Shown here: positions 2,202 through 63,772 of the stretch, piece after piece | Layout of the letters: each line of letters begins with the position of its first letter | Position numbering within the stretch: position 1 is the first letter of the stretch | NCBI GenBank assembly: GCA_964436545.1 | Contig: CAYTCJ010000004.1 | Location: 59,368 to 123,367, forward strand | Origin: an uncultured Candidatus Saccharibacteria bacterium | GTDB lineage: Bacteria > Patescibacteriota > Doudnabacteria > UBA920 | Reading direction: 5' to 3' | DNA: 64,000 nucleotides | Notes under the pieces: model-generated | Seen by the model: the letters and a program-made list of their open reading frames with translations, nothing else | Databases searched by the model: none | What the model was told of the DNA's origin: nothing | Translations under genes and position numbers: made by a program

Positions 2202-2318
2202 CTGTCATCCCGACCGACCGAATGCTTCTGAGGGAGTGGAGGGATCCCTTAAGTCTTGAATATATAAGGGATTCCTCGGCTCGTCGTTTAGCTGGCGGAG
2301 ACTCGCTCGGAATGACAG
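2202..2318. mobile_element. MITE-like palindromic element (family A, 'GGAATGACA' type) in the dnaK-dnaJ spacer
   Basis: About 117 bp bounded by terminal inverted repeats CTGTCATCCCGACCGA ... TCGCTCGGAATGACAG. Internal palindrome GAGGGATCCCTTA...TAAGGGATTCCTC. Same termini as the elements at 16834, 32028, 49646 and 63746. Confidence 0.45.
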
Positions 2319-2523
2319 AGGGGGTGTTTTGCAAAGGCGGAAGTCTAAGTAAGGCAAATTTGCCAGCATCTGAAGTTATGGGATCAAAGCTTGCAGAAAT
2401 AAAATTTACAGCCTCAAAAAGTAGAAATTATGAGGTATGAATTATGAATTATGGAAAAAAGTATTATTTTCATTATTTCCTTTTTGCAAGGTTTTACTAG
2501 ACAGGTAATTCTTAATTCAGCTT

Positions 2524-3702
2524 ATGTCTAAAAATTATTACGAGATTTTAGGAGTTGGTAAATCTGCTTCGGCCGACGAAATCAAACGCGCCTTTCGAAA
2601 AAAAGCTCACGAATACCACCCAGACAAGGGCGGAGGTAATGCGGAAAAATTTAAAGAAGTGAATGAAGCTTACCAGGTTTTGGGTGACGAAGGTAAAAAG
2701 AAAAATTACGATACTTATGGCACGGCCGAAGGCCCCATGGGTGGTTTTGGTGGTGGAGGGGGTCCGTTTGGTGGTTTTTCCGGCGGAGCTGGACCAGGCC
2801 CTGCCTGGGATTTTAGCGGGTTTTCTAACCAAGGGGGTATGGAATTCGATTTGGGTGATATTTTTGGGGATTTATTCGGTGGGGGTGGAGGCAGGGGACA
2901 AACCGCTTCCAGAAGAAATAAAGGGATAGATTTAGAAATGCCCATGCAAGTGAGTTTTGAAGAAGCGGTTTTTGGCGTGGAAAAAATTGTGAGTTTGGAA
3001 AAACGTGATGAATGCAAAATGTGCAAAGGCACCGGAGCGGAAGCAGGTACTAAAATCAGCACGTGTAGCAAGTGCCATGGTCAAGGGCAAATTCGCACTC
3101 AAAGAAGAACCATTTTTGGCAATGTGGCTTCGGCAGTGGCGTGTGATAATTGTGAGGGCACGGGTAAAACTCCGGACAGTCCCTGCAAAACTTGCAAAGG
3201 GGTGGGAAGTTTTCGGCAGGATAAAAAATTAAATGTAAAAATTCCCGCGGGCATAGATGACGGGCAGTCAATTCGCATACCCGGAGAAGGCGAAGCCGGA
3301 TACAGAGGTTCCAAACCCGGAGATTTATATTTGCGTTTAAGTGTTAAACCGCATAAAGATTTTGTGCGCGACGGCATTAATTTGTATAAAGATTTGCCAA
3401 TTAGTTTTACGCAAGCCAGCTTAGGGGCAAAATTATTGGTAAAAACTTTAGATGGCGAGATAGAATTAAAAATTCCCAGTGGCACCCAAAACGGAGTGCA
3501 GTTTAGAATAAAAAATAAAGGTGTGCCTCAGATAGATAATCGAGACCATCGAGGTGATTTGTTGTTAACCGCCCGCGTGATTGTGCCGACAAAACTGAGT
3601 AAAAACGAAAAAGAAATATTAAAAGCTTTAGCCAAGGAACGGGGCGAAAGTGTGGAAGTGGACAGTAATTTGTGGGACGAAATTAAGCATTCTTTTAGTT
3701 AA
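2524..3702 (+). CDS. dnaJ: Co-chaperone DnaJ
   Basis: J-domain (YYEILGV ... HPDK), Gly-rich linker, four CxxCxGxG zinc-finger repeats and a C-terminal client-binding domain. Confidence 0.95.
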
Positions 3703-3818
3703 CCTTGGGGTATTAGCACGGAAAATTTTTTCCTCTAAAAGAGGAATTGTGGTATAATGGTTAAAGTAATATGTAGGATAAGCTGAGAAGCAGGGTTGTT
3801 GTGAAATAAAAAACAAAA

Positions 3819-4373
3819 ATGGATATTTCCACTTTTTCGCAAACTAAAGACTTAGTTCAAACTTTTAACTGGAACACGCCTTCTTGGGACTTGTTTATTT
3901 TTTTATTTTGGGCCTGTGCCAGTGTGTTTTACGCTTTTAGTGCCGGACGAGGACGCATTATCAACATTTTAATTTCCGTGTATATGGCAAAGCTGTTAAC
4001 TTTGGAAGCGCCGTTTTTAAGCCGAGCCATTGAGGGGAGTTTGCCGAGTAATTTGCTGGCGGTCCAACAGTTAGTGGTGTTTGTGTTATTATTTGTGATC
4101 TTATTTGTTTTACTCGGTCGGTATGCGTTTAAGACTTCGGCAGATCACAGAAAAATTACTTCCATAGTTTATGGTTTGATTTTTGCGATTTTACAAATTG
4201 GGTTATTAATCAATACTGTCTTAACTTTACTGCCTATGGGTGTACAAAATAGTTTTAGCCAACTCATTCAAAAACTTTTTATTTATAATCCGGCCAGTTT
4301 TGTGTGGTTGCTTTTGCCTTTAGGGTATTTGGTCCTGTTGGGCAGACATTTAAGCCATCATGATGAATTTTAA
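3819..4373 (+). CDS. Integral membrane protein (CvpA-like?)
   Basis: 184 aa with 4-5 predicted hydrophobic helices. No catalytic motif. Confidence 0.45.
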   Translation: MDISTFSQTKDLVQTFNWNTPSWDLFIFLFWACASVFYAFSAGRGRIINILISVYMAKLLTLEAPFLSRAIEGSLPSNLLAVQQLVVFVLLFVILFVLLGRYAFKTSADHRKITSIVYGLIFAILQIGLLINTVLTLLPMGVQNSFSQLIQKLFIYNPASFVWLLLPLGYLVLLGRHLSHHDEF

Positions 4374-4449
4374 TTTTTAGCATTTAGGGGGTAGCGTTTA
4401 GTAAGTAGCTAATTTTACTCATATTATTTACTATATAGGAATATCAAAG

Positions 4450-4854
4450 ATGCATAAACATATAGTGCTTTTAATTGATGATGACGCGTTAATCATCAAC
4501 ACGCTTAAGCAGAGGTTTGCCACAAGGGAAATTGAACTGTTTACCGCCGGTAGTCCGGAGGAAGCTAAAAGTATTTTAGAAAAAATTACTCCGCAAATTG
4601 TGGTTTTGGACTTATTGTTAACCAGAGAAGACGGCAGTAGCGGGGTGTTGGATAAATTAAAAAGCCAAGAACGATTAAAGCATATTCCGGTTTTAGTGTT
4701 AACTAATTTAGATAAACCGGAATTAAGAACAATGTTATTAGGGCAAGGGGTTAAAGAGTATTTAATTAAAGGCAGTTTAAGTCTAGATGAGTTATACGAA
4801 AAGGTGCTTAGTTATTTGGAACCTAAGGAAGAAACTCTAAATCCGAAAAACTAA
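4450..4854 (+). CDS. Stand-alone response-regulator receiver domain (CheY-like)
   Basis: LLIDDD acidic pocket, phospho-acceptor Asp in VVLDLLL, and a conserved Lys in KEYLIKGS. 134 aa with no output domain. Confidence 0.7.
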   Translation: MHKHIVLLIDDDALIINTLKQRFATREIELFTAGSPEEAKSILEKITPQIVVLDLLLTREDGSSGVLDKLKSQERLKHIPVLVLTNLDKPELRTMLLGQGVKEYLIKGSLSLDELYEKVLSYLEPKEETLNPKN

Positions 4855-7221: not shown

Positions 7222-7770
7222 ATGAGAAACAAAAATCAAAAAGGCTTTACCTCCACACCAAATTTTGGTGTGAGCCTGCCAAGCAGGCGGGGGTTCACCC
7301 TCATAGAACTTCTAGTCGTAGTGGCAATTATTGCGTTGTTAACTTCCGTGGCCTTAATTGCTTTAGTATCTGCCAGACAAAAAGCGAGAAATGCCAAACG
7401 GGCAGCCGACATGGTCCAAATGCTGAATGCTTTGGAATTGTTCAAGGCACAGCATGCCGGTTACCCGAATGACACCACTCCTCAAGATGGTATACCCGAT
7501 GGTGTATCGCCAAGATTTGCTTCTACTATTCCGAAAGCTCCGACTCCCGCTGATTCGGTGATTTGTGAAGCGAATTTCAGTCCGTGTGGCGGAGCCGGCG
7601 AACCCGCTTGTGTAATTGCCAATACTTATTACTATGTTCCCAAGGGTACTTGCGAGATAGTTAACAGTGTGGAAGTCTGTTCCGATTACGAATATTATTT
7701 TTGTTTAGGAGATAAAACGGGGAGTATTCCGGCCGGGGTAAAAATCATGGGACCAAAAGGGATAAGGTAG
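7222..7770 (+). CDS. Type IV pilin / pseudopilin (prepilin-type N-terminal cleavage/methylation domain)
   Basis: GFTLIELLVVVAIIALL class-III signal-peptide motif. Cys-rich C-terminal domain. Confidence 0.8.
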   Translation: MRNKNQKGFTSTPNFGVSLPSRRGFTLIELLVVVAIIALLTSVALIALVSARQKARNAKRAADMVQMLNALELFKAQHAGYPNDTTPQDGIPDGVSPRFASTIPKAPTPADSVICEANFSPCGGAGEPACVIANTYYYVPKGTCEIVNSVEVCSDYEYYFCLGDKTGSIPAGVKIMGPKGIR

Positions 7771-14293: not shown

Positions 14294-16657
14294 TTACTCG
14301 GTTTTCTTTTTGTAAACTTTTTTAGGTTTGGGCGGATTGGCTAACCAGTGTTTGTAGGCTTCATCGAGCTGTGTTTGGCTTTCTGGTTTTACATTCATTA
14401 CAAAAGTGCAGTCGGGAAAACGCGTGCAAGCAAAGAAGGGTTTGCCCCGACCTCGGGATTTTTTTTCTACCACATCACCCGGTTTGTCTTTGCGAGCATC
14501 GGTCGCTAAACAATTGGGACACTTGTAGCCGGTTTTGTTCCAAATTTTGCTAATGCCTTTACATTTAGGATAGTCCACACAACCTAAGAAAAACCCAAAC
14601 CTGCCCCGCCTTACACCCATTTGTTTTCCGCAAATTGGGCACATTTCGCCTTTGGTCTTTTCTTCCAATTCCTTAATTTTTACTGCTTCTTCGGGCATAG
14701 GCTGGGTAATTTTACTTTCCGGATCCGGACAGGCGAGAAATTTGCCATTCCTCCCGTACTTAATAAGCATCATTTTTCCGCAGTGGGTACAAGGAGTTGT
14801 GGAGACCTCGATTTGTTTTTCTACGGTTTTTTCTTTCTCAATTAAGTGTTGTTTAAAGGGCCCATAAAATTCGTTCATCACTTCCACCCATTTGATTTTG
14901 CCTTCGGCGATCAAATCCAATTCCGCTTCAATGTGGGAGGTAAAATTTATATCTACAATTTCCGGAAAATTTTCCACTAACATATCGTTTACCAAAAAAC
15001 CCTCTTCAGTGGGGGAGTAGCGTTTATCGAGCTTATTGACATAGCCACGGTCTTGAATGGTGGAAAGGGTGGGGGCGTAGGTAGAAGGCCTGCCCACTCC
15101 ATGGGCTTCTAAGGCTTTAATTAAAGTGGCGTCGCTATAGCGAGCCGGAGGTTCTGTAAAATGCTGAAGGGGTAACAGTTCGTGGAGTTTTAATTTTTCA
15201 TCGACCGATAGTTCAGGCAACACCCCTTCGATTTCGTCTTCCGCTTTTTCGTCCGTATCTTCGGTATAGGCGCGAATGAAGCCGTCAAATTTAATAACTT
15301 GCCCATGAGCGCGAAAGAGAAACGCCCCCGGCTTCGCCACCCCCTCTTTGGCCAAAGAGGGGGGAGGGGGAGTTGCCTTTATATCCACGGCGGTTTGTTC
15401 CAAGGTGGCGGGTGTCATTTGGCAAGCAATAGTGCGTTTCCAAATGAGACTGTAAATTTTTTTCTGTCCCGCGTCTAAGTACTGGGCTAGGTCTTCGGGT
15501 TTTCTTAAAACGTCCGTGGGCCTTATGGCTTCGTGCGCTTCTTGGGCGCCTTTGGATTTGTTCGTAAAGTGCCGAGGTTCAGCTAAGGCATATGCTTTCC
15601 CAAAATGACTCTCAATAACTTGTTTTATGGTATCCAGTGCGGATTTAGCTAAGTTCAAACTATCCGTTCTCATGTAAGTAATCAGTCCGGTATGGCCTTC
15701 TTGGCCTAAATTTATGCCTTCGTATAATTGTTGGGCAATGACCATGGTTTGCTTTGCCGACATGCCAAATTTGCGCGCAGCTTCTTGCTGGAGGGTGGAA
15801 GTGGTAAATGGGGCTGATGGGTTGCGTTTCACTTCTTTTTGGGAAATCTCCACCACCTTGTACGTGGCTCCATCTAGGTCTTGAACAATTTTTTTTGCGT
15901 CAATCTCTTTGTTAATATCCATCTTGCCCACAGCTTTTTCGTCGATTTTGTGAAGCTTCGCAGTAAAAACTTTTTTATCATCGGCAGGGGATAATTGAGC
16001 TTCTATGCTCCAGTATTCCTCTTTAACAAATTTTTGAATTTCTCTTTCTCTTTCCACCACCAGTCTTACCGCCACCGATTGCACCCGACCTGCGCTTAAA
16101 CCATAGCGAATTTTTCGCCACAAAAACGGTGACAGTTCATAGCCCACTAACCGGTCGAGCACCCTTCGGGCTTGCTGGGCATCTACTAAATTTAAATCTA
16201 AATCTCGGGGATTTTTTAGCGCTTCGTCAATGGCAGTTTTGGTAATTTCGTGAAAAACAATGCGCTTTATGCGTTTGTCTTCCTTGCCTTTGGCAATTTC
16301 CGCTTCGTCGCCCAAACCTAAAGCTTGCACCAAATGCCAAGAAATGGCCTCGCCTTCGCGGTCTTCATCAGTCGCTAATATAATAGAGGGGGCGGTTTTG
16401 GCGTCCTTTTTTAGTTCCGTAATAATTTCTTTGGCTTTGGGCGGAATAATATAAGTGGGTTCAAAATCCTTTTTAACATCAATAGAAATTTTACTTTTGG
16501 GCAAATCCCGCACATGACCAAAACTGGCCTTGACTGTATATCCATTCCCTAAAAAACGCGAAATGGTTTTCGCTTTGGTGGGGGACTCAACAATAATTAA
16601 AGGTTTGGACATAGGTAAGTGAATAATGCTTAGTGAATAGAGATAAGGATAAAACAT
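14294..16657 (-). CDS. topA: DNA topoisomerase I
   Basis: TOPRIM (LIIVESPTKAK ... LATDEDREGE), catalytic Tyr region (LITYMRTDS) and C-terminal Zn ribbons. The conserved N-terminus starts at the ATG at 16609; the 16657 start adds 16 aa. Contains an in-frame family-B palindrome at about 15338-15378. Confidence 0.92.
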   Translation of the reverse strand: MFYPYLYSLSIIHLPMSKPLIIVESPTKAKTISRFLGNGYTVKASFGHVRDLPKSKISIDVKKDFEPTYIIPPKAKEIITELKKDAKTAPSIILATDEDREGEAISWHLVQALGLGDEAEIAKGKEDKRIKRIVFHEITKTAIDEALKNPRDLDLNLVDAQQARRVLDRLVGYELSPFLWRKIRYGLSAGRVQSVAVRLVVEREREIQKFVKEEYWSIEAQLSPADDKKVFTAKLHKIDEKAVGKMDINKEIDAKKIVQDLDGATYKVVEISQKEVKRNPSAPFTTSTLQQEAARKFGMSAKQTMVIAQQLYEGINLGQEGHTGLITYMRTDSLNLAKSALDTIKQVIESHFGKAYALAEPRHFTNKSKGAQEAHEAIRPTDVLRKPEDLAQYLDAGQKKIYSLIWKRTIACQMTPATLEQTAVDIKATPPPPSLAKEGVAKPGAFLFRAHGQVIKFDGFIRAYTEDTDEKAEDEIEGVLPELSVDEKLKLHELLPLQHFTEPPARYSDATLIKALEAHGVGRPSTYAPTLSTIQDRGYVNKLDKRYSPTEEGFLVNDMLVENFPEIVDINFTSHIEAELDLIAEGKIKWVEVMNEFYGPFKQHLIEKEKTVEKQIEVSTTPCTHCGKMMLIKYGRNGKFLACPDPESKITQPMPEEAVKIKELEEKTKGEMCPICGKQMGVRRGRFGFFLGCVDYPKCKGISKIWNKTGYKCPNCLATDARKDKPGDVVEKKSRGRGKPFFACTRFPDCTFVMNVKPESQTQLDEAYKHWLANPPKPKKVYKKKTE
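15338..15378. repeat. GC-rich palindromic element (family B) in-frame inside topA
   Basis: CCACCCCCTCTTTGGCCAAAGAGGGGGGAGGGGGAG encodes the inserted peptide PPPPSLAKEGV. Confidence 0.6.
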
Positions 16658-16833
16658 TTTGTCTTTGCCTATTCTCTTTTCACTGCTCTCTTGTCGCTAA
16701 TTACAAAAGTGAGTTTAACCATAAAAAAAATAATTGTCAAACAGTAGGGAAAGAAGTATGAATTAGGAATTATGAATTATGAATAGGAAAAAAATAATAT
16801 TGAGGCATTTTACTTTATCATTCGTGTTTTTTC

Positions 16834-16925
16834 TTGTCATTCCCGCGTAGGCGGGAATCCAGTGCTTGTTTGGAAATAGATCCCGGATATTGTTCGGATG
16901 CACTCACAATTCCGGGATGACAACA
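16834..16925. repeat. Family-A palindromic element (two hairpins)
   Basis: GTCATTCCCGCGTAGGCGGGAATCCAG plus ATCCCGGATATTGTTCGGATGCACTCACAATTCCGGGATGACAAC. Termini TGTCATTCCCG / CCGGGATGACA. Confidence 0.5.
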
Positions 16926-16977: not shown

Positions 16978-17082
16978 CTGTGAGAAAAGCCTTGAGCCTT
17001 CTCGGTGTTGTCGCTTTTGTTTTGGGCCTTATGGCCCTAGCGTACTACATCGAGATGCCAGCGGGACACCTGCACACTGGGT
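16978..17082 (+). CDS. Candidate small hydrophobic peptide (34 aa), GC-rich
   Basis: Strong SD AAAGGAGGTG 7 nt before a GTG start. Sequence VRKALSLLGVVAFVLGLMALAYYIEMPAGHLHTG, followed by a CCGACG...CGTCGG hairpin and T-run. Lies directly downstream of a family-A palindrome. Not in the ORF track because it is under 60 aa. Confidence 0.3.
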
Positions 17083-17130
17083 GATCCCGTAGACCGACGT
17101 CAGGGGGCCTTAACCCCTTTGGCGTCGGTT

Positions 17131-18426
17131 TTATTTTAAAATTTTTGTATTTATATTAATTTTCTCTAAAATCTTTTGGGTTTCGGTTTCATTGGCTAAA
17201 CGGGGCGTGGAAAAGTTTTCTATTATGACTGGCAAAAGTTCAATGGAGTCGAGTGTGACAGGGGTTTTAGTGCCTTGCAGTTCATTTTGATTTTTGATTT
17301 TTGATATTTGAATTTTCAGTGTCAGTCCCTCTGTGGTTTCTTGGCTCCAGTCTTGGTCAAAAATAAAGTTGCCCAGAGAATAGAAAATGTATTTACAGTC
17401 TTTGCCCCCCTCCCTACCCCTCCCCACGAGGGGGAGGGAACTGGAAGCATTAGCCTCCATCTTGGGGAGTAAATTTTTATTTTCCTCTCCCTTGATGGGA
17501 GGGGTTAGGGGAGGGTGATTGTTGCTATTGGGACAATATTTTTCAATTGTCTGTATCCAATGCGGGTGAGCGCCAATTACCATATCCGCTCCCAAATCAA
17601 TGGCCTTATGGGCAAAATCTATTTGCGCCTTGTTAGGTGTGTATGTATATTCGGTTCCGGCATGCATTGTAGCCACCGTATAATCACACAGGGTTTTTGA
17701 TGTAGTAATGGATAATTTTAAATTTTCCATATCTTCTATTCTCGCTACGTAATCATTATTGCTTTTCCCATTGTCATTGATCGAAGCGTAAGACGCGCCC
17801 ACAAAACAGATTTTTATGCCGTTAGTTTCCACCACTGCCGGTTGCCAAGCTTGACTGAGGTCCAAGCCGGCTCCCACTGTTAAAACATTATTTTGCGTGA
17901 GAAGTTGTTTGGTGAACAGCAGTCCGTCTCGGCCTTTATCTAACGCATGGTTATTGGCTAAGTTGAGAACTTTAAATTTATTTTCCATTAAACCGCTTAA
18001 ACTGGAAGTGGGGGAGGCGAAAATTAGAGCACTGCCCCCAATAATGGGTTTTTCTGAAAAAGGGGTTTCTAAATTCCCAAAATTAAAATCTGTGGAGTTT
18101 AAGAGTGGGGAGAGTCTGGAAAAAGGCAAAAGCGGATTGTTGGCTTGTTTAATTTTTAAAGCAACTTTGCGTGAGAGCATAATGTCGCCCACAGCCAGAA
18201 AGGTCGTTTGAGTTTTTTCTACGGGTTTGTCTTTAGCAAGCGTTTGGGCTTTATTATAAAAAGCCCAAAGTTCGTTTTCGGCTGTTTTGGATAGTGCTAC
18301 GGTTTTAACATTGGGATGATTGATGCTGTAAGTTTTTTCTTTACGTTGCATTAAGCCTAAAGCTATGGCCAAAGCAAACAGGAGAGGAAGAATAAATTTT
18401 AAATATTTAGAGGGTATAAATTTCAT
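17131..18426 (-). CDS. CapA-family metallophosphoesterase (poly-gamma-glutamate synthesis-type)
   Basis: LAVGDIMLSR, ADMVIGAHPHW and YSLGNFIFD motifs. Carries two in-frame family-B palindromes (17405-17440 and 17484-17515) giving an about 45-aa insertion. Confidence 0.72.
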   Translation of the reverse strand: MKFIPSKYLKFILPLLFALAIALGLMQRKEKTYSINHPNVKTVALSKTAENELWAFYNKAQTLAKDKPVEKTQTTFLAVGDIMLSRKVALKIKQANNPLLPFSRLSPLLNSTDFNFGNLETPFSEKPIIGGSALIFASPTSSLSGLMENKFKVLNLANNHALDKGRDGLLFTKQLLTQNNVLTVGAGLDLSQAWQPAVVETNGIKICFVGASYASINDNGKSNNDYVARIEDMENLKLSITTSKTLCDYTVATMHAGTEYTYTPNKAQIDFAHKAIDLGADMVIGAHPHWIQTIEKYCPNSNNHPPLTPPIKGEENKNLLPKMEANASSSLPLVGRGREGGKDCKYIFYSLGNFIFDQDWSQETTEGLTLKIQISKIKNQNELQGTKTPVTLDSIELLPVIIENFSTPRLANETETQKILEKININTKILK

Positions 18427-18480: not shown

Positions 18481-19587
18481 TTATCTGCTCAGCACATACT
18501 GTTGCCCGCCCAGATTCCGAATCTGGCCTTTCATTTCTAAAAAAGTCAAGGTAGAAGCTACTTCGCCGGGGCTCAGTTTGGATAATTTGATTATATCATT
18601 AATAAAGGTCGGGGTTTTGCTTAAGCAAGTTAAAATGGTTTGTTCGGTTGGGTTTGGGGAGAAGAGAGCTTGAGTTTGGAGTTCATCGGGTAAGGATTTT
18701 AAGTTAAGATCTTCTAAAATATCTTCGGCTGTAGTGACCAGTTTGGCGCCCATTTTAATTAAATTGTTAGGGCCTTGACTTTGCGAGGAGTAGATGGGTC
18801 CGGGTACGGCATAAATTTGCCGATTTTGTTCCAAGGCGTGGTTTGCGGTAATTAAGGAGCCGGAATTTAAATCGCATTCAATCACTAAAGTGCCGACTGA
18901 CAAACCGGCAATTATGCGGTTTCTGGCAATAAAGTGTTGTTTAAAATTGGGGGTGAGGGGCGGATACTCGGAAATTAAACAGCCACCCTTGTCCAAAATT
19001 TCTTGGGCTAATAACTGGTGCTGTTTGGGATAAATGGATTCGGTGTCTAAGCCACCGCCTAAGACCGCAATGGTTTTTTGATTTTGTTTTAAAGCCAGTT
19101 TGTGGGCTTCACCATCTACGCCAAAAGCCATACCCGAAACAATAATGGCTCCGGAGGCGATTATGGGGTCCAGTAAATCGGGCATTACGGTTAAGCCATA
19201 GGTGGTAATTTTCCGACTGCCCACTACGGAAAAACACACTGCGTCGCTGGGAGGTAGGTGTCCTTTAATGTAAAGTAAAGGTGGAAATTTAGAAATTTCT
19301 AATAATAATTTGGGGTAGGCGGGACTTAAAAAACTCAGAAGTTGAATGTGGTGATGTTCTAAAGTAGTCTGCTGTTGAGCTAGATTTAAATGAGTTTTCT
19401 TCTCTAACCAGAGTTGAATGATGTCCGCTTCCAAGCCTGCCAATTTTAAATCAGAGGCAGGTGCAGAAAAGGCTAGTTTAAAATCATTATGAAAATATTG
19501 GGCTAACCGCATGATTCGGGCGGGGCCAATTTGAGGTAATAAATTAAAAGCGTGTATATATAGAGCGTTAGAGTCTAACATTGACAA
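18481..19587 (-). CDS. dprA: DNA-processing protein DprA (Smf)
   Basis: DprA Rossmann core (VVGSRK ... SGMAFGVDGEAH ... VLGGGLD ... ARNRIIAG ... VPGPI). TTG at 19587 or ATG at 19581 as start. Confidence 0.8.
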   Translation of the reverse strand: MSMLDSNALYIHAFNLLPQIGPARIMRLAQYFHNDFKLAFSAPASDLKLAGLEADIIQLWLEKKTHLNLAQQQTTLEHHHIQLLSFLSPAYPKLLLEISKFPPLLYIKGHLPPSDAVCFSVVGSRKITTYGLTVMPDLLDPIIASGAIIVSGMAFGVDGEAHKLALKQNQKTIAVLGGGLDTESIYPKQHQLLAQEILDKGGCLISEYPPLTPNFKQHFIARNRIIAGLSVGTLVIECDLNSGSLITANHALEQNRQIYAVPGPIYSSQSQGPNNLIKMGAKLVTTAEDILEDLNLKSLPDELQTQALFSPNPTEQTILTCLSKTPTFINDIIKLSKLSPGEVASTLTFLEMKGQIRNLGGQQYVLSR

Positions 19588-19839: not shown

Positions 19840-20451
19840 TTAATTTTGTAATTTTGTAATTTTGTAATTTTTAAAATCAAAAAATTGATTTATTTCAGTT
19901 TTTATTTGAGGAAAAATATCCGCTTGTAGTTTTTGCATTTCATCAGCTGTGAAATTTTGGAGCACAAAAGCTTCGGTGGGTAAATCAGTTTTGGCTTGTC
20001 TGGTTTCCACGCCAACTCGGATGCGGTGGAAATTTTGGGTACCTAAGTGGTCTATAATGTCAGCTACGCCATTATGCCCGGCGGAAGAAGCCGAGGCAGT
20101 GGTTTTCAGTTTGCCCAAAGGCAGGTCAATATCATCGTGAATGACCAATAAATCTGTTTGTGTATTAAGTTTATAAAAATCCGTAAGGGTTTTAACGGCT
20201 TGGCCGGAAAGATTCATAAAAGTTTGGGGTTTGGCAAAAAGGAAATAACTCCCCCCGTCCCCCTCTTTGGAAAAGAGGGGGAGTGAGGCGGAGTGAGGAA
20301 CCTCTAAAATTTCCGAAGCGAATTTTTTTTGCCACTTCCCATTTGTAAATCCTAAATCTGCCATTAACCAATCTAAAACCATCCAGCCTACATTGTGGCG
20401 GGTACTTTTATATTTTTCTCCCGGATTGCCCAGTCCAACAATTATTTTCAT
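19840..20451 (-). CDS. pth: Peptidyl-tRNA hydrolase
   Basis: MKIIVGLGNPG ... TRHNVGW ... FMNLSG ... GHNG motifs. Carries an in-frame family-B palindrome (20251-20298) encoding LPLFSKEGDGGSY. Confidence 0.9.
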   Translation of the reverse strand: MKIIVGLGNPGEKYKSTRHNVGWMVLDWLMADLGFTNGKWQKKFASEILEVPHSASLPLFSKEGDGGSYFLFAKPQTFMNLSGQAVKTLTDFYKLNTQTDLLVIHDDIDLPLGKLKTTASASSAGHNGVADIIDHLGTQNFHRIRVGVETRQAKTDLPTEAFVLQNFTADEMQKLQADIFPQIKTEINQFFDFKNYKITKLQN

Positions 20452-20466
20452 AGAGTTCGTTAAAAC

Positions 20467-20538
20467 ATTCTAACATTTTAACATACTAACATTTTAACAT
20501 TCTAACATGCTAACATCTTAACATTCTAACAATATTCA
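20467..20538. repeat. Tandem 8-bp repeat (NNTAACAT) x about 9 upstream of pth
   Basis: TAAAACAT TCTAACAT TTTAACAT ACTAACAT TTTAACAT TCTAACAT GCTAACAT CTTAACAT TCTAACAA. Confidence 0.8.
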
Positions 20539-20562
20539 TAATTCAACTTCATACCTCTATTC

Positions 20563-28900: not shown

Positions 28901-29142
28901 TATAGACGAAACCCTAGATCTGTCCTTTGAAGTCCACGAGAGATGGACGAAGGAGGAAGCCTTGGCGAAGTAGGGCTCAAGTCCTTTCTGCCCTAGATGA
29001 AATCTTGCGTATGATTCGGTTTTTTAGTAATTTTTTTTGTAAGGTAAAGGATTATATGGATAGTTTTTAATATAATATCCGGCTTTAATAAGCCGGATAT
29101 TATATTTTTAAACTTATTTAAGATGAAAAATAAGCCAAAACC

Positions 29143-29171
29143 TTGACATAAAGTAAAAAATGTTATATAAT
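29143..29171 (+). promoter_or_regulatory. Consensus sigma-70 promoter (TTGACA-17-TATAAT) with no downstream ORF
   Basis: cTTGACAtaaagtaaaaaatgttaTATAATg. The next about 290 nt are non-coding with several hairpins before the repeat/GC-island region. Confidence 0.4.
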
Positions 29172-29466
29172 GCGAAGTTATATTATTATTCCTAACTTTC
29201 CAGTTTGGGAAGATCATATAACACAGCTCTTTAAATTATCCCTTAAGGAGGGATTAGACCCTAGTTAAATAGTGCCAATTTGGTTTGGAAATTTAACAGG
29301 GTAGAGTGTTACTTTTTAACCGCGGATTTGTGGCTGAGTTTAAAGTCAGTTGCAAATTAATTGCGGATGGTTTGGGTCTGCCAAGTGGCAGAAGTTGATG
29401 GCGAACGAATGCATAAAGGGCATTTGTCCCATGCGATAGAGATTTCATTTTATTTCACAGATGTTA

Positions 29467-29505
29467 GCGATGCGAATATACGAATGCATGCTAATGATAC
29501 GAATG
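29467..29505. repeat. 39-bp direct repeat, copy 1 of 4, bounding the GC-rich cassettes
   Basis: GCGATGCGAATATACGAATGCATGCTAATGATACGAATG. Other copies at 31079-31117, 31200-31238 and 34444-34480. Confidence 0.75.
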
Positions 29506-29635
29506 AATACGGATAGGGGAATCATAACTCCCCCTACCCCCTCTTTGGAAAAGAGGGGGGAAGAGAGGAATAAAAATGGAATAGCTATTGCATGGGGCAA
29601 ACAGACAAGCCCCCAATGCAGAAAGGAGCACAAAA

Positions 29636-40311: not shown

Positions 40312-40340
40312 GAAATAAGGGAATTAATATGTTCGGTTCC

Positions 40341-40367
40341 AAACCCCCCGATATTCTCGGGGGGTTT
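40341..40367 (+). terminator. Intrinsic terminator after the giant ORF
   Basis: AAACCCCCCGATATTCTCGGGGGGTTT plus a T-run. Confidence 0.55.
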
Positions 40368-40418
40368 GGGTTTAAATTTGGCATTTTTTACTTTTGTGCT
40401 ATACTGATTTTATATAAA

Positions 40419-40586
40419 GGGTCTGTTTCCAAATGTCATTTTGTCTGCAACTGTAAAATTTTGGCTACTTGTCACAAAAAATTTTTCCGCTTATCCTACG
40501 GATAAGCATCAAAATTTATTTGTGCCAATTTGCTCTAATTTAATAGTTTCGTCTTAAAAGCACATTCGGAAACAGACCCAAAACAA
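40419..40586. repeat. About 168-bp element bounded by 18-bp inverted repeats upstream of ftsZ
   Basis: GGGTCTGTTTCCAAATGT ... ACATTCGGAAACAGACCC. Internal CTTATCC-TAC-GGATAAG hairpin. Confidence 0.4.
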
Positions 40587-40685
40587 ATATCAAAATAAAA
40601 AATCAATCGTTTGTATTTTAAGGTTAACCTTTCAACACGTTTGATTTTTTGTTTGATTTAATTTATTCTGAAATTATCAACTAAA

Positions 40686-41980: not shown

Positions 41981-42337
41981 ATGATAATTAAGTCATTTAC
42001 AGAAATTATTGCTTGGCAAAAATCTCACCAATTAGTTTTAGATGTTTATATTTTAACATCAGAGTATCCAAAACACGAGATGTTTGGTTTAGTCAGTCAG
42101 AGTCGTAGGTGTGCGGTATCTATTCCTTCTAATATTGCGGAAGGTTTTAAGAGAAAATCGCTTAACGATTCATTGCATTTTTATAATATCGCGGAAGCGT
42201 CATTAGAAGAGCTAAAGTATCAACTTTTACTCGCTAAAGATTTAAAATACGTTTCAGAATTTAAATATCAAAAAGTTTTTGAACTATGTGAGGAGGTTGG
42301 AAAGTTAATTTATGGTTGGATAAAAATTCAAAAATAA
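41981..42337 (+). CDS. Four-helix-bundle protein (TIGR02436 / '23S rRNA IVS protein' family)
   Basis: IPSNIAEGFKRKS hallmark motif. The gene is bracketed by inverted GTAAGTTG-word arrays (41915-41960 and 42340-42375). Confidence 0.7.
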   Translation: MIIKSFTEIIAWQKSHQLVLDVYILTSEYPKHEMFGLVSQSRRCAVSIPSNIAEGFKRKSLNDSLHFYNIAEASLEELKYQLLLAKDLKYVSEFKYQKVFELCEEVGKLIYGWIKIQK

Positions 42338-43332: not shown

Positions 43333-44220
43333 TTAGAGTTCGCTACCCGTGATGAGGCGGTACGCCTCACGATACTTCTCGCTGGTGCGCGCGACCACGT
43401 CGTCCGGCAGCCCCGGCGCCGGCGGTTGCTTGTTCCACCGAATCTCTTCCAAATAATCGCGAACGAACTGCTTGTCGTAGGAGGGTTGTGGACCGCCTGG
43501 CCGGTACGAATCGGCGGGCCAGAAGCGCGACGAATCGGGCGTGAGCACCTCGTCGGCGAGCACGAGTTCATCGCCCACGAATCCGAACTCGAATTTGGTG
43601 TCGGCTAGCAGAATGCCGCGCGAAGCGGCGTACTCGGAGGCTTTGCCGTAGATCCGGAGCGTGAGATCCCGCAGACGGGCTGCAGTTTCGGCGCCCGTGA
43701 TCCGCTCCACCTGCTCGAAGGGAATGTTCTCGTCGTGACCGCTTTGCGCCTTGGTGGCGGGTGTGAAGAGCGGTTGCGGGAGACGGTCGCTTTCGACCAG
43801 ACCGGCGGGGAGCGGAATCCCGCAGACCGAACCTTGGGCCTTGTACTCCTTCCAGCCGGAGCCCGCCAGATTGCCGCGCGCCACGCATTCCACGTCGATC
43901 ATCTTGGCGCGGCGGACCAGCATGGAGCGGCCCTCGAGCTGATCGCGGAACGGCTGGAGTTCCACCGGATATTCATCGACGTTCGCGGTGAGGAAGTGGT
44001 TCGGGACGACGTCGCGGAGGAAGTTGAACCAGAACATCGAGATCCGCGTCAGCACGCTGCCCTTGTCCGGGATGCCGGTCGGCAGGATGTAGTCGAACGC
44101 GGAGATGCGGTCGGTCGCGACGATGAGCAGGTCTGCGCCGACGGCGTAGTTGTCGCGGACCTTACCACGCCCGATCAAATCAATTCCGGGCAGACTTGTT
44201 TCTAAAAGGACATTACTCAT
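43333..44220 (-). CDS. purC: Phosphoribosylaminoimidazole-succinocarboxamide synthase (SAICAR synthetase), GC-rich, apparently acquired
   Basis: GKVRDNY, LLIVATDRISAFD and LADTKFEFG motifs. True start is MSNVLL with RBS AAGGAGG. About 62% GC versus about 40% host. The tracked ORF's N-terminal extension into AT-rich DNA is rejected. Confidence 0.85.
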   Translation of the reverse strand: MSNVLLETSLPGIDLIGRGKVRDNYAVGADLLIVATDRISAFDYILPTGIPDKGSVLTRISMFWFNFLRDVVPNHFLTANVDEYPVELQPFRDQLEGRSMLVRRAKMIDVECVARGNLAGSGWKEYKAQGSVCGIPLPAGLVESDRLPQPLFTPATKAQSGHDENIPFEQVERITGAETAARLRDLTLRIYGKASEYAASRGILLADTKFEFGFVGDELVLADEVLTPDSSRFWPADSYRPGGPQPSYDKQFVRDYLEEIRWNKQPPAPGLPDDVVARTSEKYREAYRLITGSEL

Positions 44221-44428
44221 TTGTAATGTCCTCCTTTCTTTTTGATTTCTCCTCCGTAGGAGATGACTTAGGATAACAAAGTAAGGGGGGATTGTAAAGG
44301 CAGAAAAGTTAATAAGTTTATAAGTAGTAAGTTGTAAGTAAAAAGCAATCAGTAAATAATTCAATTTTGTTTGGGGATAAGTGGGCGGGGGTTTTTAAAA
44401 AATTTAGGTTTTCGCGGGTTTGCACGTA

Positions 44429-45016: not shown

Positions 45017-45292
45017 GTTGGTAAGTTGCCTGCCTGACGGCAAGGCAGGTAAGTAGTAAGTTGGTAAGTTGTAAGTCAATCAGTAGACAGCTCATCAGCA
45101 AAGAATAAAGCAAACAGCGATTAGGTATTAGTTGTAGAAACCGGTCGGGTGTTAAGTAAGTGGTGGTAAGTCATTTAAAATCAATAAACTTATGACTATT
45201 TTCTATACCGGATTCTATAATTTTAAACTTATAACAAAACTGAATTTAAATTTATTTAAAAATTAAAAATTTGTAATTAAAAATTTTATTCT

Positions 45293-47968: not shown

Positions 47969-48053
47969 AGCGTAGCACTATATTATTCTCCCCTGGCGAG
48001 GGGAGATGTCCTGAAGGGACAGAGAGGTGGTTGGTCATCAAGTTATAAAATAA

Positions 48054-48086
48054 GGCGTCCCGACGGCCGTCGGGACGCCTTTAAAA
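48054..48086 (+). terminator. Intrinsic terminator after nrdJ
   Basis: GGCGTCCCGACGGCCGTCGGGACGCCTTT. Preceded by a family-B-like hairpin TCTCCCCTGGCGAGGGGAGA at about 47987-48006. Confidence 0.5.
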
Positions 48087-48090
48087 AAAT

Positions 48091-48750
48091 ATGAGAAGAA
48101 AAAAGATAACCATACCGCAGGAGTTTAGTAGTGAACCTAGGGGTTTAGTGATTGCCTATTTAGGCGCCGGCAAAGGGAAGACCACAGCTGCTATGGGTAT
48201 GGCCATAAGAGCTTCGGGAGCTGGGATGAATGTCTATATTTTGCAGTTTGTAAAAGCCAAAGGCGCATCAGTAGATAAAATAAAAGACGGGGAATGGCCG
48301 GTAAGTAGTGAAATAGATTTTTTTAATGCAATGGGCTCATATCACCCCCCAGCCCCCTCTTACTTTAAGAGGGGGGAGGGCCAAATTGGCAAAATTGAAA
48401 ATGAACAATTGGGTTTGGGTTTTGTTGGGATTTTGGGGGATAAAAAACAAAAGGCTATTCATATTAAAGCCGCAATCGATGGTTTATCCCGCGCCAGAGA
48501 AATTATCACTTCCGGTGAATATCAAGTAATTATTTTAGATGAAATCATTTCAGCTTTGGAAAGTCAGCTAATAGAAGAGCGGGATATTATTGATTTAATT
48601 CAACTCAAGTCGCCACTTCAGCATTTAGTCTTGACTGGGCATAATAAATATCCTAAGCTGTTAAAATATTGCGATTTAGTGACGGAAATGAAAATGGTTA
48701 AGCATCCTTACTATAAGGGAATTTTGGCACAGAGGGGGATAGACTATTAA
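48091..48750 (+). CDS. Cob(I)alamin adenosyltransferase (CobO/BtuR-type)
   Basis: P-loop GAGKGKTTAA ... QFVK and C-terminal LDEI ... VLTGHN ... DLVTEM ... KHPY. Carries an in-frame family-B palindrome at 48345-48380. Confidence 0.8.
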   Translation: MRRKKITIPQEFSSEPRGLVIAYLGAGKGKTTAAMGMAIRASGAGMNVYILQFVKAKGASVDKIKDGEWPVSSEIDFFNAMGSYHPPAPSYFKRGEGQIGKIENEQLGLGFVGILGDKKQKAIHIKAAIDGLSRAREIITSGEYQVIILDEIISALESQLIEERDIIDLIQLKSPLQHLVLTGHNKYPKLLKYCDLVTEMKMVKHPYYKGILAQRGIDY

Positions 48751-49388: not shown

Positions 49389-49991
49389 ATGATTTTATAT
49401 TTAATAATAATTACAGCAGTGGTAAGTAGGTTTGTGCCTCATCCGGTCAATTTTGCTCCCATTACAGCCATTGCCATATTTGGCGCTTATCACTTGGGCT
49501 GGAAACAAGCTGTGGGTTTAACTTTAGTTATTCGGTTAGTGAGCGACTTATTTTTAGGATTGGTCGCCTGGCCCATGATGGTGGCAATTTACGCCTCGCA
49601 TTTGGTGGGGGTGTTGTTGGGGGTCTGGATTCGAAACTCAAAGAATGTCATTCCGGAAACCCGCCTTGGCGGGGTATCCGGAATCCAGAAACAAACAATG
49701 GATCCTGGCTCACAGGCCGGGATGACACTAGGAAAATGGGTAAGAATAATTATTGCTTCTTTAGGTGCCTCTGTAATTTTCTTTTTAGTTACTAATTTTG
49801 CTTTTTTGTATTCTAATTATTCTCACAACTTATCAGGCATTATAGAAAGTTATATTAACGGACTGCCTTTTTTGCGAGGCACTCTAATGGGCGATCTGGT
49901 TTATTCCGTGGTTTTATTTGGCGGGTTGGCGTTAGTGGAAAAATATGAAATATTAAAATTTAAATCTCCAAATTTTAAACATCAAATATAA
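49389..49991 (+). CDS. Multi-pass membrane protein (possible ECF-type substrate-binding S component); contains an in-frame family-A palindromic element
   Basis: 5-6 TM helices. The element at 49646-49727 encodes the loop NVIPETRLGGVSGIQKQTMDPGSQAGM. Confidence 0.45.
   Translation: MILYLIIITAVVSRFVPHPVNFAPITAIAIFGAYHLGWKQAVGLTLVIRLVSDLFLGLVAWPMMVAIYASHLVGVLLGVWIRNSKNVIPETRLGGVSGIQKQTMDPGSQAGMTLGKWVRIIIASLGASVIFFLVTNFAFLYSNYSHNLSGIIESYINGLPFLRGTLMGDLVYSVVLFGGLALVEKYEILKFKSPNFKHQI
49646..49727. repeat. Family-A palindromic element inserted in-frame in a membrane-protein gene
   Basis: TGTCATTCCGGAAACCCGCCTTGGCGGGGTATCCGGAATCCAG ... GGATCCTGGCTCACAGGCCGGGATGACA. Confidence 0.55.
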
Positions 49992-51329: not shown

Positions 51330-51369
51330 TCCCCCTCTTGTGAGAGGGGGATTATTTTAAAATTTTAGT

Positions 51370-52188: not shown

Positions 52189-53661
52189 ATGTCCGGTTTA
52201 GCTATTACTAAATCTCAGGTTTTTATTGGGTTTTGCATAGTTTTTGCCATGGGTATATTTTTAGCTTCCAAAGTTTCTATTTCCAATGTGTGGGTGTATA
52301 GTATGTGGTTCTGTTTAAGCTTAATTTGGTTAATTCGCTTGGTTAATCAACACCCTTACGGTATTATCAGTTTTGTGATTTTAGGTTTTTGGGTGATGAC
52401 TTTAGGCATGTGGCGTTTGAATATTGCAGACCAAGTAAATATTTTTGAACCTGTATTTAATACCTCGCAAAGTCTGGAAGGGGTTATTACGGAAGATATA
52501 GATATAAGAGAGAATAAACAATTAATTCGGTTTCAGCCTAATTACGTTCCGCAACAAATTTTAATTACCACCAATAAAACCCAAGAATTTTTTTACGGGG
52601 ATTATTTATTGGTTATGGGCCAAATTAAGTCAGCCAAAAATTTTGACGATTTTGATTATCAGGCTTATTTGGAACGGTATAATATTTATGGGGTAATGGC
52701 GTACCCAAAAATTTTAATTTTAAAAACTAATCGGGCGAGTAAAGTAAAATTTTGGTTATTAAAAATTAAACAAAGTTTTACGAATCGTTTGGGGAAATTT
52801 TTACCCGAACCGCAAAATAGTCTCGCGTTAGGTGTGTTAATTGGTGCTAAGCGGGGATTACCTTCCGGAATTTTGGAAAATTTTAATCGTTCCGGTACTT
52901 CACACATTGTGGCCGTGTCGGGTTATAATATTGCAATAATTGTAAGTGCTTTAAGTATCTTAGCTTGGGTTTTGGGCCGAAAACTTAGTTTTTGGGTTTC
53001 TTTATTGTTTATCTGTAGTTTTGTGATTATTGCCGGAGCCTCGCCGTCGGTAGTCCGAGCTGGGGTGATGGGGATGTTGTTATTGCTAGGTTTTAAAATT
53101 GGTCGGTTATATTCAGTGATCCCCGCTTTAATGTTAGCTGGTGTTTTGATGTTATGGATGAACCCAAAAATTTTACTTGCCGATATTGGCTTCCAATTAT
53201 CTTTTTGCGCTACGCTGGGTATTATTTTATTTATGCCCTTGTGGGAAGAACTGGCGAAAAATTGGCCTAAGTTGGCTGGTTTAAAAAGTATTTTTTTTGT
53301 TTCCGTTTCCGCTATTTTGGCGACTTTGCCTATTACTTTACCCACTTTTTCCCAACTGAGTTTAGTCGCGTTGCCGGCAAATTTATTGGTTTTGCCGGCT
53401 GTGCCCTTGGCTATGTTATTTGGATTTTTAACGGTTTTGCCTGTGGTGGCGCCGGGTTTTGCTTTTTTGGCCAATGGATTTTTAACTTATATTTTGTTAG
53501 TGGTGGAAAAATTAGGTCAATTACCTATGGCAGTTTTAAATTTTCAAGTTGGGAAGTCCGGACAATTTATGCTTTGGTTAGTTTTAGCTTTAATGTATTG
53601 GGGGTTAAAGTATTGGGTTTTGAAAAAAAATCAAAAGAGTGTTAAGATTAGCTGTAAGTAA
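52189..53661 (+). CDS. comEC: ComEC/Rec2-family competence membrane protein (N-terminal plus competence domains, no beta-lactamase domain)
   Basis: DUF4131-like N-terminus, then GTSHIVAVSGYNIAII competence motif, with more than 10 TM helices. Confidence 0.72.
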   Translation: MSGLAITKSQVFIGFCIVFAMGIFLASKVSISNVWVYSMWFCLSLIWLIRLVNQHPYGIISFVILGFWVMTLGMWRLNIADQVNIFEPVFNTSQSLEGVITEDIDIRENKQLIRFQPNYVPQQILITTNKTQEFFYGDYLLVMGQIKSAKNFDDFDYQAYLERYNIYGVMAYPKILILKTNRASKVKFWLLKIKQSFTNRLGKFLPEPQNSLALGVLIGAKRGLPSGILENFNRSGTSHIVAVSGYNIAIIVSALSILAWVLGRKLSFWVSLLFICSFVIIAGASPSVVRAGVMGMLLLLGFKIGRLYSVIPALMLAGVLMLWMNPKILLADIGFQLSFCATLGIILFMPLWEELAKNWPKLAGLKSIFFVSVSAILATLPITLPTFSQLSLVALPANLLVLPAVPLAMLFGFLTVLPVVAPGFAFLANGFLTYILLVVEKLGQLPMAVLNFQVGKSGQFMLWLVLALMYWGLKYWVLKKNQKSVKISCK

Positions 53662-58452: not shown

Positions 58453-58647
58453 ATGGAAAATCAAAATATATCTGCCGATGAAGTGTTAAGACAAATTTTA
58501 GAGAATACGCAAAAGACCAAAAAATATATGCAATGGCAATTTTATGTAACTATTGTATTGGTGGTGTTGCCCATTCTGGCCATGGTATTTATTTTGCCGT
58601 CGATTTTAAGTAATTTAGGGAGTGTGTATGGCGGAGCGTTGCAGTAA
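58453..58647 (+). CDS. Small single-TM protein
   Basis: 64 aa, one hydrophobic helix. Confidence 0.4.
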   Translation: MENQNISADEVLRQILENTQKTKKYMQWQFYVTIVLVVLPILAMVFILPSILSNLGSVYGGALQ

Positions 58648-58717
58648 ACATTCTAACCTGTTAACAGATAACAATTGTTAGAATGATAGGATGTTAAAAT
58701 GATAAAATGTTAAATCT

Positions 58718-62977: not shown

Positions 62978-63034
62978 AAACGCGGAATTGACGCTGAATA
63001 AAGAAACGCTGAATATACGCGGAAAATTATATAG

Positions 63035-63068
63035 AAACCCCTCGGACTTTTAAAAGTCCGAGGGGTTT
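63035..63068 (+). terminator. Intrinsic terminator after groEL
   Basis: AAACCCCTCGGACTTTTAAAAGTCCGAGGGGTTT. Confidence 0.6.
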
Positions 63069-63082
63069 GGTATTATGGGCAT

Positions 63083-63403
63083 ATGTCATATAAGCCAAGA
63101 AGATTACAAGGTCAACCTGAACCAAAAGACTTACCTAATGTAGAAGCGTCTTTAGATTTGTCTAATCCAGATTCTGAATTAAGGAGAAAACTTGTTAGTA
63201 AAACACTAGAATTAGCAAATAATTTAGTTACAGCCACAGCAGAAAGTGAAAGTCGTTTAATTACTAATTTTCAAGCTTATTTTGATAGCTTGAATTCAAA
63301 TACCGCAGTTTTAATGCACATAATTGATGAAGAAATTAGTAAAAATCCAAATTTAGCTCAACAATTAAAGCAAATCAAACTAAGTTACAATAAACCTGAT
63401 TAA
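63083..63403 (+). CDS. Hypothetical protein (106 aa)
   Basis: ORF only. Confidence 0.4.
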   Translation: MSYKPRRLQGQPEPKDLPNVEASLDLSNPDSELRRKLVSKTLELANNLVTATAESESRLITNFQAYFDSLNSNTAVLMHIIDEEISKNPNLAQQLKQIKLSYNKPD

Positions 63404-63745
63404 ATAATTTTCTTTTAAATAAGCCAGATTCTAACCGCCTTTAATGCTTGACAAATGGGCGGTTTTAGTTTACAATGTTTGGTCGTGTTAAAAAGCGCAC
63501 ATTTTTATGGTTCTGGTTATTTGTTGTAAATTATCAGTTATTAGTTATTAGTAAAAACCTATGCTCCTAATTTCGCCTAAATCGGATTGGGGGCGCTAAA
63601 TAGCCGTGAACAAGAACAATATTACTTTGGTTCTCCTGTCCACGGTTTTTTTGCGCCTTTTTTGGTTTTTATGCTAGTATGGGTTTTAAATATAGTCGCT
63701 TGCCAAATTTATTTGTTTAGAATTAGTATCTTATAAATAAGATAT

Positions 63746-63772
63746 GGATTCCCGCTTTCGCGGGAATGACAG
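63746..63772. repeat. Family-A palindrome directly upstream of a GC-rich small ORF
   Basis: GGATTCCCGCTTTCGCGGGAATGACAG. Confidence 0.55.

Follow-up and report, generated by a model that had tools for sequence, protein, structure and literature searches.

Palindromic repeats in a Patescibacteria genome segment as probable members of the NTS/SRM family associated with Ssn nucleases

The window considered here is a stretch of 64,000 nucleotides from an uncultured bacterium of the Patescibacteria (contig CAYTCJ010000004.1), with a GC content of ~40% and a GC skew that is positive throughout. It encodes dnaK, dnaJ, topA, dprA, pth, der, hisS, ftsA, ftsZ, and nrdR, together with ribonucleotide reductase, comEC, relA/spoT, fpg, and groES/EL, and a membrane protein of the DUF6580 family, whose homologues come from Patescibacteria and are mostly labelled Candidatus Doudnabacteria. 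Short palindromic repeats are dispersed over the window at seven loci, all of which had been proposed in an initial annotation and were found here, far beyond chance, with a covariance model and Markov simulations. These elements are probably Patescibacteria (Doudnabacteria-like) members of the NTS/SRM hairpin-repeat family, which is associated with the Ssn nucleases (PMC11893778, Nat Commun 2025). The seven loci are as follows:

2202-2318, inverted doublet of the B subfamily (TGTCATCCCGACCGA...GGGATCCCTTAAG / CTTATA..AAGGGATTCC...TCGGAATGACA) in the dnaK-dnaJ spacer; folds as DNA at -23.1 kcal/mol (z = -3.5)
16834-16925, A-type doublet in the divergent spacer between topA and a small GC-rich open reading frame (ORF); fold z = -5.1
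32019-32101, A-type doublet with an extended left unit (+) and a canonical right unit at 32073-32100 (-); z = -4.4
33271-33297, minus strand, single unit with its NTS sense on that strand; 49.7 bits with the covariance model
34952-34978, minus strand, single unit after the DUF5663 gene, which stops at 34932, and before a 1,776-aa ORF with its ATG at 34984
49646-49727, A-type doublet, in-frame, 81 nt (VIPETRLGGVSGIQKQTMDPGSQAGMT), in an interhelix loop of the DUF6580 membrane protein
63746-63771, minus strand, single unit GGATTCCCGCTTTCGCGGGAATGACA, 25 nt upstream of the small GC-rich ORF at 63797

Together, these loci comprise nine hairpin units of ~26 nt and one related element of 117 bp. In one orientation the unit reads TGTCATYCC, stem and loop, GGRATCC(A), and in the other GGATTCC...GGAATGACA. 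Three of the loci are singlets, and the other four, described earlier as long copies with simple terminal inverted repeats, proved to be tail-to-tail doublets of the unit (TGTCAT...ATGACA); at 16834-16925, for instance, a canonical unit (16835-16862, +) is paired with a long-stem unit (16873-16922, -). All loci stand where they had been placed, except that the third copy starts at 32019 and not at 32028. The grouping of the seven copies into one family holds for a hairpin repeat family in general, but 2202-2318, with the ends TGTCATCCCGA...GGGATCCCTTA, is a distinct, related subfamily.

The covariance model was built from 39 units (window and relatives), and the whole window was scanned with filters off; the known loci were recovered and no further ones, the rank-8 match being only partial. 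The A-type units were placed by the model at 16832-16865(+), 16873-16925(-), 32016-32072(+), and 32070-32103(-) for the first doublets, and at 33266-33300(-), 34947-34981(-), 49643-49691(+), 49695-49730(-), and 63741-63774(-) for the others, with unit 16873 reaching E = 0.13 in the whole-window run and 8e-5 in a later run of the model. A census of the bare 9-mer GGAATGACA with one mismatch allowed was not significant alone (19 observed vs 12.7 expected), so the full unit was modelled; defined by GTCAT/ATC flanks and a stem of at least 7 bp, it occurred 47 times in 1.7 Mb (window and relatives) vs 0-2 times in Markov simulations.

The unit spans ~26-28 nt and consists of a conserved 5' GTCAT flank, an 8-bp stem of the ATTCCCGC type, and a 3' ATCC flank. 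No variation is seen in the unpaired GTCAT and ATC among the 39 aligned units, while five of the eight stem pairs have changed on both sides; judged from this alignment, the stem is free to vary provided that pairing is kept. The earlier description of a dispersed, hairpin-forming repeat is borne out; all copies form stable structures as single-stranded DNA (ssDNA; z = -3.5 to -6.2), and the inverted doublets of the short palindrome form a composite hairpin. Among adjacent units on opposite strands in all sequence collected, 16 of 17 pairs are oriented GTCAT-out, with gaps of -9 to +20 nt (P = 3e-4).

The link to the Ssn system was found by a full-text literature search with the stem sequence. 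The NTS repeat of Neisseria, CGTCATTCCCGCGMAVGCGGGAATCYRG, contains the older dRS3 palindrome and is bound and cut as ssDNA only, and on one strand only, by SsnA, a single-domain GIY-YIG protein of 94 aa that cleaves a few bases upstream and does not bind the RNA form (PMC11893778). Across phyla, including Neisseria, Wolbachia, Rhizorhabdus, and others, Ssn-related motifs (SRM) flank the ssnA genes; in Neisseria, the NTS/dRS3 repeats are clustered around variable surface-protein genes, and the integration of transforming DNA that bears NTS is reduced by SsnA (PMC11893778). In the window, the units at 16835-16862 and 63744-63771 differ from the NTS consensus by two mismatches each. The published degenerate SRM pattern is matched by three units vs 0.33 expected, and the remaining units lie just outside it, with covariance-model E values of 1e-8 to 2.5e-3. 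The dRS3 palindrome ATTCCCN8GGGAAT is exact at 16839-16858, 32077-32096, and 63748-63767, whereas the other units have ATTCCG or ATCCCG stems.

For direct comparison, the gonococcal ssnA region was taken from two gonococcal chromosomes in PLSDB. The orthologue there has 94 aa, carries Y6, Y17, and E64 as in PMC11893778, and has NTS copies on its flanks. One of these copies next to ssnA, GGATTCCCGCTTTCGCGGGAATGACG, is identical to the window unit 63746-63771 at 25 of 26 positions, and a covariance model made from Candidate Phyla Radiation (CPR) units alone detected 13 NTS copies in 1.5 kb around the gonococcal gene. The Ssn/NTS system has been known only since 2025 and mainly from Pseudomonadati; the presence of the NTS/SRM-Ssn kind in the Patescibacteria/CPR, a phylum absent from the main text of PMC11893778, is new, and near-identical repeats together with a 58%-identical nuclease are now found in CPR bacteria.

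This nuclease was identified when 80 related loci fetched around DUF6580 were searched for an ssn-like gene. A GIY-YIG gene of 94-96 aa is present in 12 of the 80. Four of the encoded proteins match Pfam GIY-YIG at E = 1e-14 to 1e-19, and the identity to gonococcal SsnA is 58% (E = 1e-42) with identical spacing of the catalytic residues; NCBIfam gave no specific family for such proteins, and a PDB search returned only a distant UPF0213 GIY-YIG structure. Palindromic repeats stand on one or both sides of all 11 ssn-like genes examined and are of the TGTCAT type in about six. In L005 the gene is bracketed by TGTCATTCCCGCGAAGGCGGGAATCC, the main type of the window, and in L031 by TGTCATCCCGACCGAAGCGGAGGGATCCCTTA, the type of 2202-2318, whose end sequences occur on both sides of the L031 gene. 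TGTCAT-type units were also found at L033, L044, L058, and L036 (on one side only in L033 and L044), while in L025, L016, L019, L011, and L024 the repeat is a variant without the TGTCAT end. The flanking repeat type shifts together with the ssn gene lineage, which on sequence comparison suggests that nuclease and site co-diversified. The repeats around the gene in L005, L031, and L058 are arranged GTCAT-out, as the doublets are. In several relatives the ssn-like gene is located between the ribonucleotide reductase and cobA genes, and its recurring position upstream of cobA corresponds to the following coordinates:

L005, 4419-5025, ssn-like gene with repeats, upstream of cobA
L031, 8245-8635, ssn-like gene with repeats, upstream of cobA
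L058, 10924-11279, ssn-like gene with repeats, upstream of cobA
Window, 47969-48090, the corresponding spacer between ribonucleotide reductase and cobA, empty

In L044, the ssn-like gene comes after the terminator hairpin of the reductase gene, a hairpin that is also present in the window.

The in-frame copy that had been reported in the membrane-protein gene at 49389 is real. It lies in the following gene:

49389-49991, plus strand, DUF6580 membrane-protein gene (Pfam PF20221, E = 1e-37), host of the in-frame doublet

The insert occupies 81 nt (49647-49727) and adds 27 aa (VIPETR...AGMT) between two predicted helices, and orthologues without an insert have ~170 aa in the orthologue alignment. 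In the AlphaFold model, the inserted residues 87-113 are an unstructured loop of low confidence. An insert of at least 9 aa in the same loop was found in 60 of the 120 best DUF6580 homologues, with insertion points no more than a few codons apart. These inserts derive from several palindromic families; at least 26 start with VIP (GTC ATT CC.), and GMT or DD is a frequent ending. Two contigs from one metagenome-assembled genome (MAG), L003 733-973 and L004 784-1030, have near-identical flanks and carry different elements at the same loop position, one being an NTS-type doublet and the other a CCCCCTCTTTGG...AAGAGGGGG element; the comparison indicates recent replacement or strain-level polymorphism. 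These two alleles and the frequency of inserts mark the DUF6580 loop as a recurrent and recently active site of insertion or replacement. L003 is also the closest public relative, with 96% identity in the DUF6580 protein. A phenomenon like that of the Rickettsia palindromic elements (RPE) exists in the CPR, with palindromic repeats in-frame in housekeeping and membrane proteins and a hot spot in DUF6580.

The CCCCCTCTTTGG..AAGAGGGGG repeats are a different palindromic family, copies of which lie in-frame in at least four conserved genes of the window, where they encode peptides such as PPPPSLAKEGV, LPLFSKEGDGG, and PSYFKRGEG:

15333-15374, in topA
20252-20293, in pth
48346-48375, in cobA
17406-17440, in the PGA_cap gene

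This family also occurs between genes, where it is terminator-like, and further sites are 29530-29560 and 51331-51350.

The window contains six ORFs of foreign composition, with GC of 0.54-0.69 and third-codon-position GC (GC3) of 0.58-0.81 vs 0.24-0.46 elsewhere. Most of them have a strong Shine-Dalgarno (SD) sequence, and their products are secreted or membrane proteins in which proline-rich (APKPE) repeats occur:

29636-30769, GC-rich ORF gc1, the largest
32234-32968, GC-rich ORF gc2
33368-34144, GC-rich Trypsin_2 ORF
43333-44223, minus strand, GC-rich ORF
16980-17084, small GC-rich ORF
63797-63942, small GC-rich ORF

Five repeat copies had been placed before an SD sequence and a GC-rich ORF. 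Four of these hold, and the fifth does not, as the 1,776-aa ORF at 34984 is of native composition (GC 0.41, GC3 0.34) and no SD sequence stands between the unit and its ATG. The ORF at 32234 begins 133 nt downstream of the 32019-32101 doublet, and unit 33271-33297 lies 71 nt upstream of the Trypsin_2 ORF, with a near-consensus promoter at 33192-33220 upstream of the unit. Unit 33271 and the Trypsin_2 gene are both present on the independent Logan contig L083, so their juxtaposition is physical linkage and not an assembly chimera. Among 5.8 billion proteins no real homologue of the Trypsin_2 ORF was found, and 1.84 billion cluster representatives yielded ten relatives of gc1; as the search found no donor, horizontal transfer from a high-GC host is not substantiated.

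Recognition of the units at the DNA level is suggested by their conserved unpaired flanks, by their occurrence in both orientations, and by the fact that they bracket a nuclease gene in relatives. The copies may be spread or maintained via ssDNA intermediates by an Ssn nuclease that would be encoded elsewhere in the genome or was formerly present. The doublets would then be gene-less, MITE/REPIN-like derivatives of an SRM-ssn-SRM cassette (MITE, miniature inverted-repeat transposable element), a view that is based on their sharing the GTCAT-out order seen around ssn in L005, L031, and L058. Copies would survive where harm is small, namely, in long intergenic spacers, 5' leaders, and a disordered membrane-protein loop, and in the DUF6580 loop only insertions that keep the frame and are free of stops would persist. 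The window also contains genes of the natural-transformation machinery, which provide the context for the proposed ssDNA role:

18481-19587, minus strand, dprA (Pfam)
52189-53661, comEC (Pfam)
7222-7770, pilin-like gene (Pfam)

With DprA, ComEC, and the pilin-like protein, the units might act as Ssn cut sites on incoming or exposed ssDNA, by which recombination would be influenced. CPR bacteria probably rely on taking up DNA, and the ssDNA-processing role of Ssn could be studied in a lineage in which transformation may be central. A stronger version seems improbable, in which the TGTCAT...ATGACA unit is an active element of the insertion sequence (IS) kind that a GIY-YIG ssDNA nuclease drives in Patescibacteria; doublets without the gene would enter the same protein loops in-frame time after time, and the element would also mark the integration sites of foreign GC-rich surface-protein genes in a naturally competent, host-dependent lineage.

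Several points weigh against assigning the repeats to a working NTS/SRM-Ssn system. No ssn or GIY-YIG gene or remnant was found in the 64-kb window by motif, Pfam, or tblastn search (E <= 10), and the syntenic site between ribonucleotide reductase and cobA is without ssn; a cognate nuclease in the source genome is thus only putative, and the units may instead be relics. In N. gonorrhoeae, ssnA is flanked in the opposite order, GTCAT-in, and mobilisation by Ssn is a hypothesis for Neisseria as well (PMC11893778). As the units in the pair counts were chosen for pairing, the figure of 100% paired follows from the selection itself, and the information lies only in how the units vary. Finally, the enrichment of the repeats upstream of GC-rich ORFs within the window is unexplained by an Ssn model beyond "permissive DNA".

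It is this enrichment that an import explanation would account for, in which the repeat is a mobile or recombinogenic unit that brings in GC-rich genes, either as a TGTCAT...cargo...ATGACA cassette or as an anchor or Ssn-cut site for transforming DNA. The 150 bp in front of ORFs with GC3 > 0.55 account for 8.7% of the intergenic DNA, and four of the six intergenic element loci fall in this zone (GC3 of the ORFs 0.58-0.75 vs 0.34-0.46 native; binomial P = 7e-4), although the test is post hoc and has six loci, of which two share a region. Moreover, gc2 lies between the (+) unit 32016 and the (-) unit 33266, in the order seen around ssn in relatives, the GC-rich ORFs code for secreted or membrane proteins, and competence genes are present in the window; Neisseria offers a precedent in the clustering of NTS/dRS3 at variable surface-protein genes and in the altered integration of NTS-bearing DNA by SsnA (PMC11893778). 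Against import, no unit-ORF junction is conserved, the sequences between unit and GC-rich ORF having nothing in common except the SD sequence; gc1 and the GC-rich purC have no unit; and three loci (the dnaK-dnaJ spacer, the giant ORF, and DUF6580) have no GC-rich neighbour. The 42 units in ~1.6 Mb of relatives are not concentrated near GC-rich stretches (mean excess 0.085 vs 0.080 at random positions), and no shared module of unit plus cargo was found there. In the relative L087, ftsA is followed by a GC-rich ORF for a secreted coiled-coil protein, by DUF5663, and by a giant ORF, an order shared with the window, and no unit is present; another repeat (TTACGGATGCTACAGAT...) flanks GC-rich ORFs with greater regularity. 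The consistent coupling to GC-rich cargo claimed in the initial annotation is thus confined to the window, and the claim that the element brings the cargo in is not upheld. Import is unlikely; most simply, the association is a local co-occurrence in long, permissive, repeat-rich spacers that are prone to recombination, and a recombinational link to the GC-rich ORFs, by analogy with Neisseria, would be a minority possibility.

The repeats could also act in RNA, as hairpins in transcripts that stabilise the message from a 5' leader or an intercistronic position, or that modulate translation of the downstream gene. All three singlets lie 5-70 nt before the start of a + strand gene, and in the direction of that gene each presents the same strand (GGAUUCC-stem-GGAAUGACA). 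Upstream, besides the promoter at 33192-33220, near-consensus promoters stand at 63448-63476 and 63700-63729, and a promoter of the DUF5663 gene at 34545 makes unit 34952 intercistronic; units 33271 and 63746 are therefore probably in 5' leaders and 34952 between cistrons, and these stable hairpins are probably transcribed. A function at this level, however, has only the three singlets to draw on. In every doublet both strands carry the unit, which is also found within a coding sequence and, in relatives, to either side of ssn. Conservation is highest in the unpaired flanks, as fits recognition by a protein, and the RNA form is reported not to be bound by SsnA (PMC11893778). The Rfam 15 covariance models gave no match at the element loci, at the gathering score or at E <= 1. 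Units are followed by no T-run on the gene-sense strand, and the two terminator-like matches (34954-34974 and 32077-32096) are on the minus strand and would not terminate the + strand genes. An RNA-level element is accordingly judged a little less likely still than import; the "portable translation/stability element" of the initial annotation is improbable as the primary nature of the family, although the hairpins may have a secondary effect on mRNA. The least credible explanation is an ordinary MITE or repetitive extragenic palindromic (REP) family, moved by a DDE or RAYT (Y1) transposase and unrelated to Ssn, with a convergent likeness to NTS. It would suit the terminal inverted repeats and the REPIN-like doublets, but inspection of the four doublets found no direct repeat shared by their flanks, so that the comparison for target-site duplications came out negative, and no transposase or integrase domain was found in ~56 window ORFs scanned against Pfam. 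The scanned ORFs likewise gave no Y1 (IS200/IS605-like) RAYT domain, the gene bracketed in relatives encodes a GIY-YIG nuclease and not a RAYT, and an identity of 25/26 to gonococcal NTS with cross-detection by the covariance model is hard to call convergence. An integron attC site is not matched either, since the core sites (RYYYAAC...GTTRRRY) differ from the TGTCAT/ATGACA ends of the unit, and no integrase domain was seen among the scanned ORFs. As part of a promoter, the ATGACA end gives only one 9-of-12 match, towards topA.

Membership in the NTS/SRM family thus being the preferred explanation, the window repeats can be set beside known systems. They resemble the NTS/SRM-SsnA system in unit sequence and in the anatomy of an oriented GTCAT flank, an 8-bp stem, and an ATCC flank, and the relatives share with it a 94-96 aa single-domain GIY-YIG gene flanked by palindromic repeats that vary with the nuclease lineage. 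They differ in that the host belongs to the Patescibacteria/CPR, copies lie in-frame inside a coding gene, and the window has no ssn; here, tight GTCAT-out doublets predominate and ssn is bracketed GTCAT-out in relatives, whereas gonococcal ssnA is bracketed GTCAT-in. With the Neisseria dRS3/NIME arrays they have in common the exact ATTCCCN8GGGAAT in three units and the adjoining secreted or membrane-protein genes of foreign composition, but the 50-150 bp RS blocks between repeats are missing (doublet spacers of -9 to +20 nt), and the other units, with ATTCCG/ATCCCG stems, fall outside the dRS3 consensus. The REP/REPIN-RAYT systems of Pseudomonas and E. coli are similar as short extragenic palindromes whose inverted doublets form a long hairpin, without target-site duplications, and which bracket, and are presumably served by, a single-copy domesticated nuclease gene; the enzyme here is a GIY-YIG nuclease and not a Y1 (IS200/IS605-type) transposase, and the sequence differs. 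The RPE of Rickettsia are palindromic repeats that insert in-frame into genes for proteins, where the additional surface peptide segments are tolerated. The likeness to RPE is in behaviour only, as the window units are shorter (81-nt doublet) and belong to another lineage.

The units also create spurious small ORFs, e.g., at 63744-63917 and 16834-16920, with peptides such as MDSRFRGND..., SFPRRRES..., and ...VIPAKAGI.... Such strings are common among the "hypothetical protein" annotations of many bacteria, and they constitute a useful flag for NTS-type repeats. The repeats may also add to the fragmentation of MAGs, the closest relative being known only on 2-kb contigs.

The spacing of ftsA and ftsZ in the window differs from that in relatives. 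The two genes are adjacent (30-300 bp) in more than 20 related genomes (among loci L084-L108), whereas they are 11.8 kb apart here (28901-40685), with three GC-rich ORFs, several repeat families, the DUF5663 gene, and the 1,776-aa ORF, which is without Pfam domains, in between. In the closer relatives L085 and L087, a GC-rich ORF directly follows ftsA. Two more repeats, GCGATGCGAATATACGAATGC... and TTACGGATGCTACAGATA.CTACAGATGGGGACAAAA, occur in modules at each GC-rich ORF of this gap and flank these ORFs with more regularity than the NTS-type units:

29466-29524, module of the two repeats
31078-31257, module of the two repeats
31860-31911, module of the two repeats
33043-33094, module of the two repeats
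34300-34501, module of the two repeats

A perfect sigma-70 consensus (TTGACA-17-TATAAT) is found at 29143-29171, and the ~460 nt that precede the first GC-rich gene (29172-29635) have no evident ORF; they may represent a long leader or else an RNA that is not annotated, with no match in Rfam. Directly after ftsZ, 41981-42337 encodes a 118-aa protein of the 23S rRNA intervening-sequence/bAvd-like four-helix family, and no reverse transcriptase was seen nearby. Tandem repeats of 7-8 nt (AACATTCT, GAATTAT, and GTAAGTT) are abundant in the intergenic spacers and recur at many of them, including the following:

20456-20541, short tandem repeats
58647-58714, short tandem repeats
2426-2454, short tandem repeats
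16754-16782, short tandem repeats
31262-31283, short tandem repeats
45049-45112, short tandem repeats

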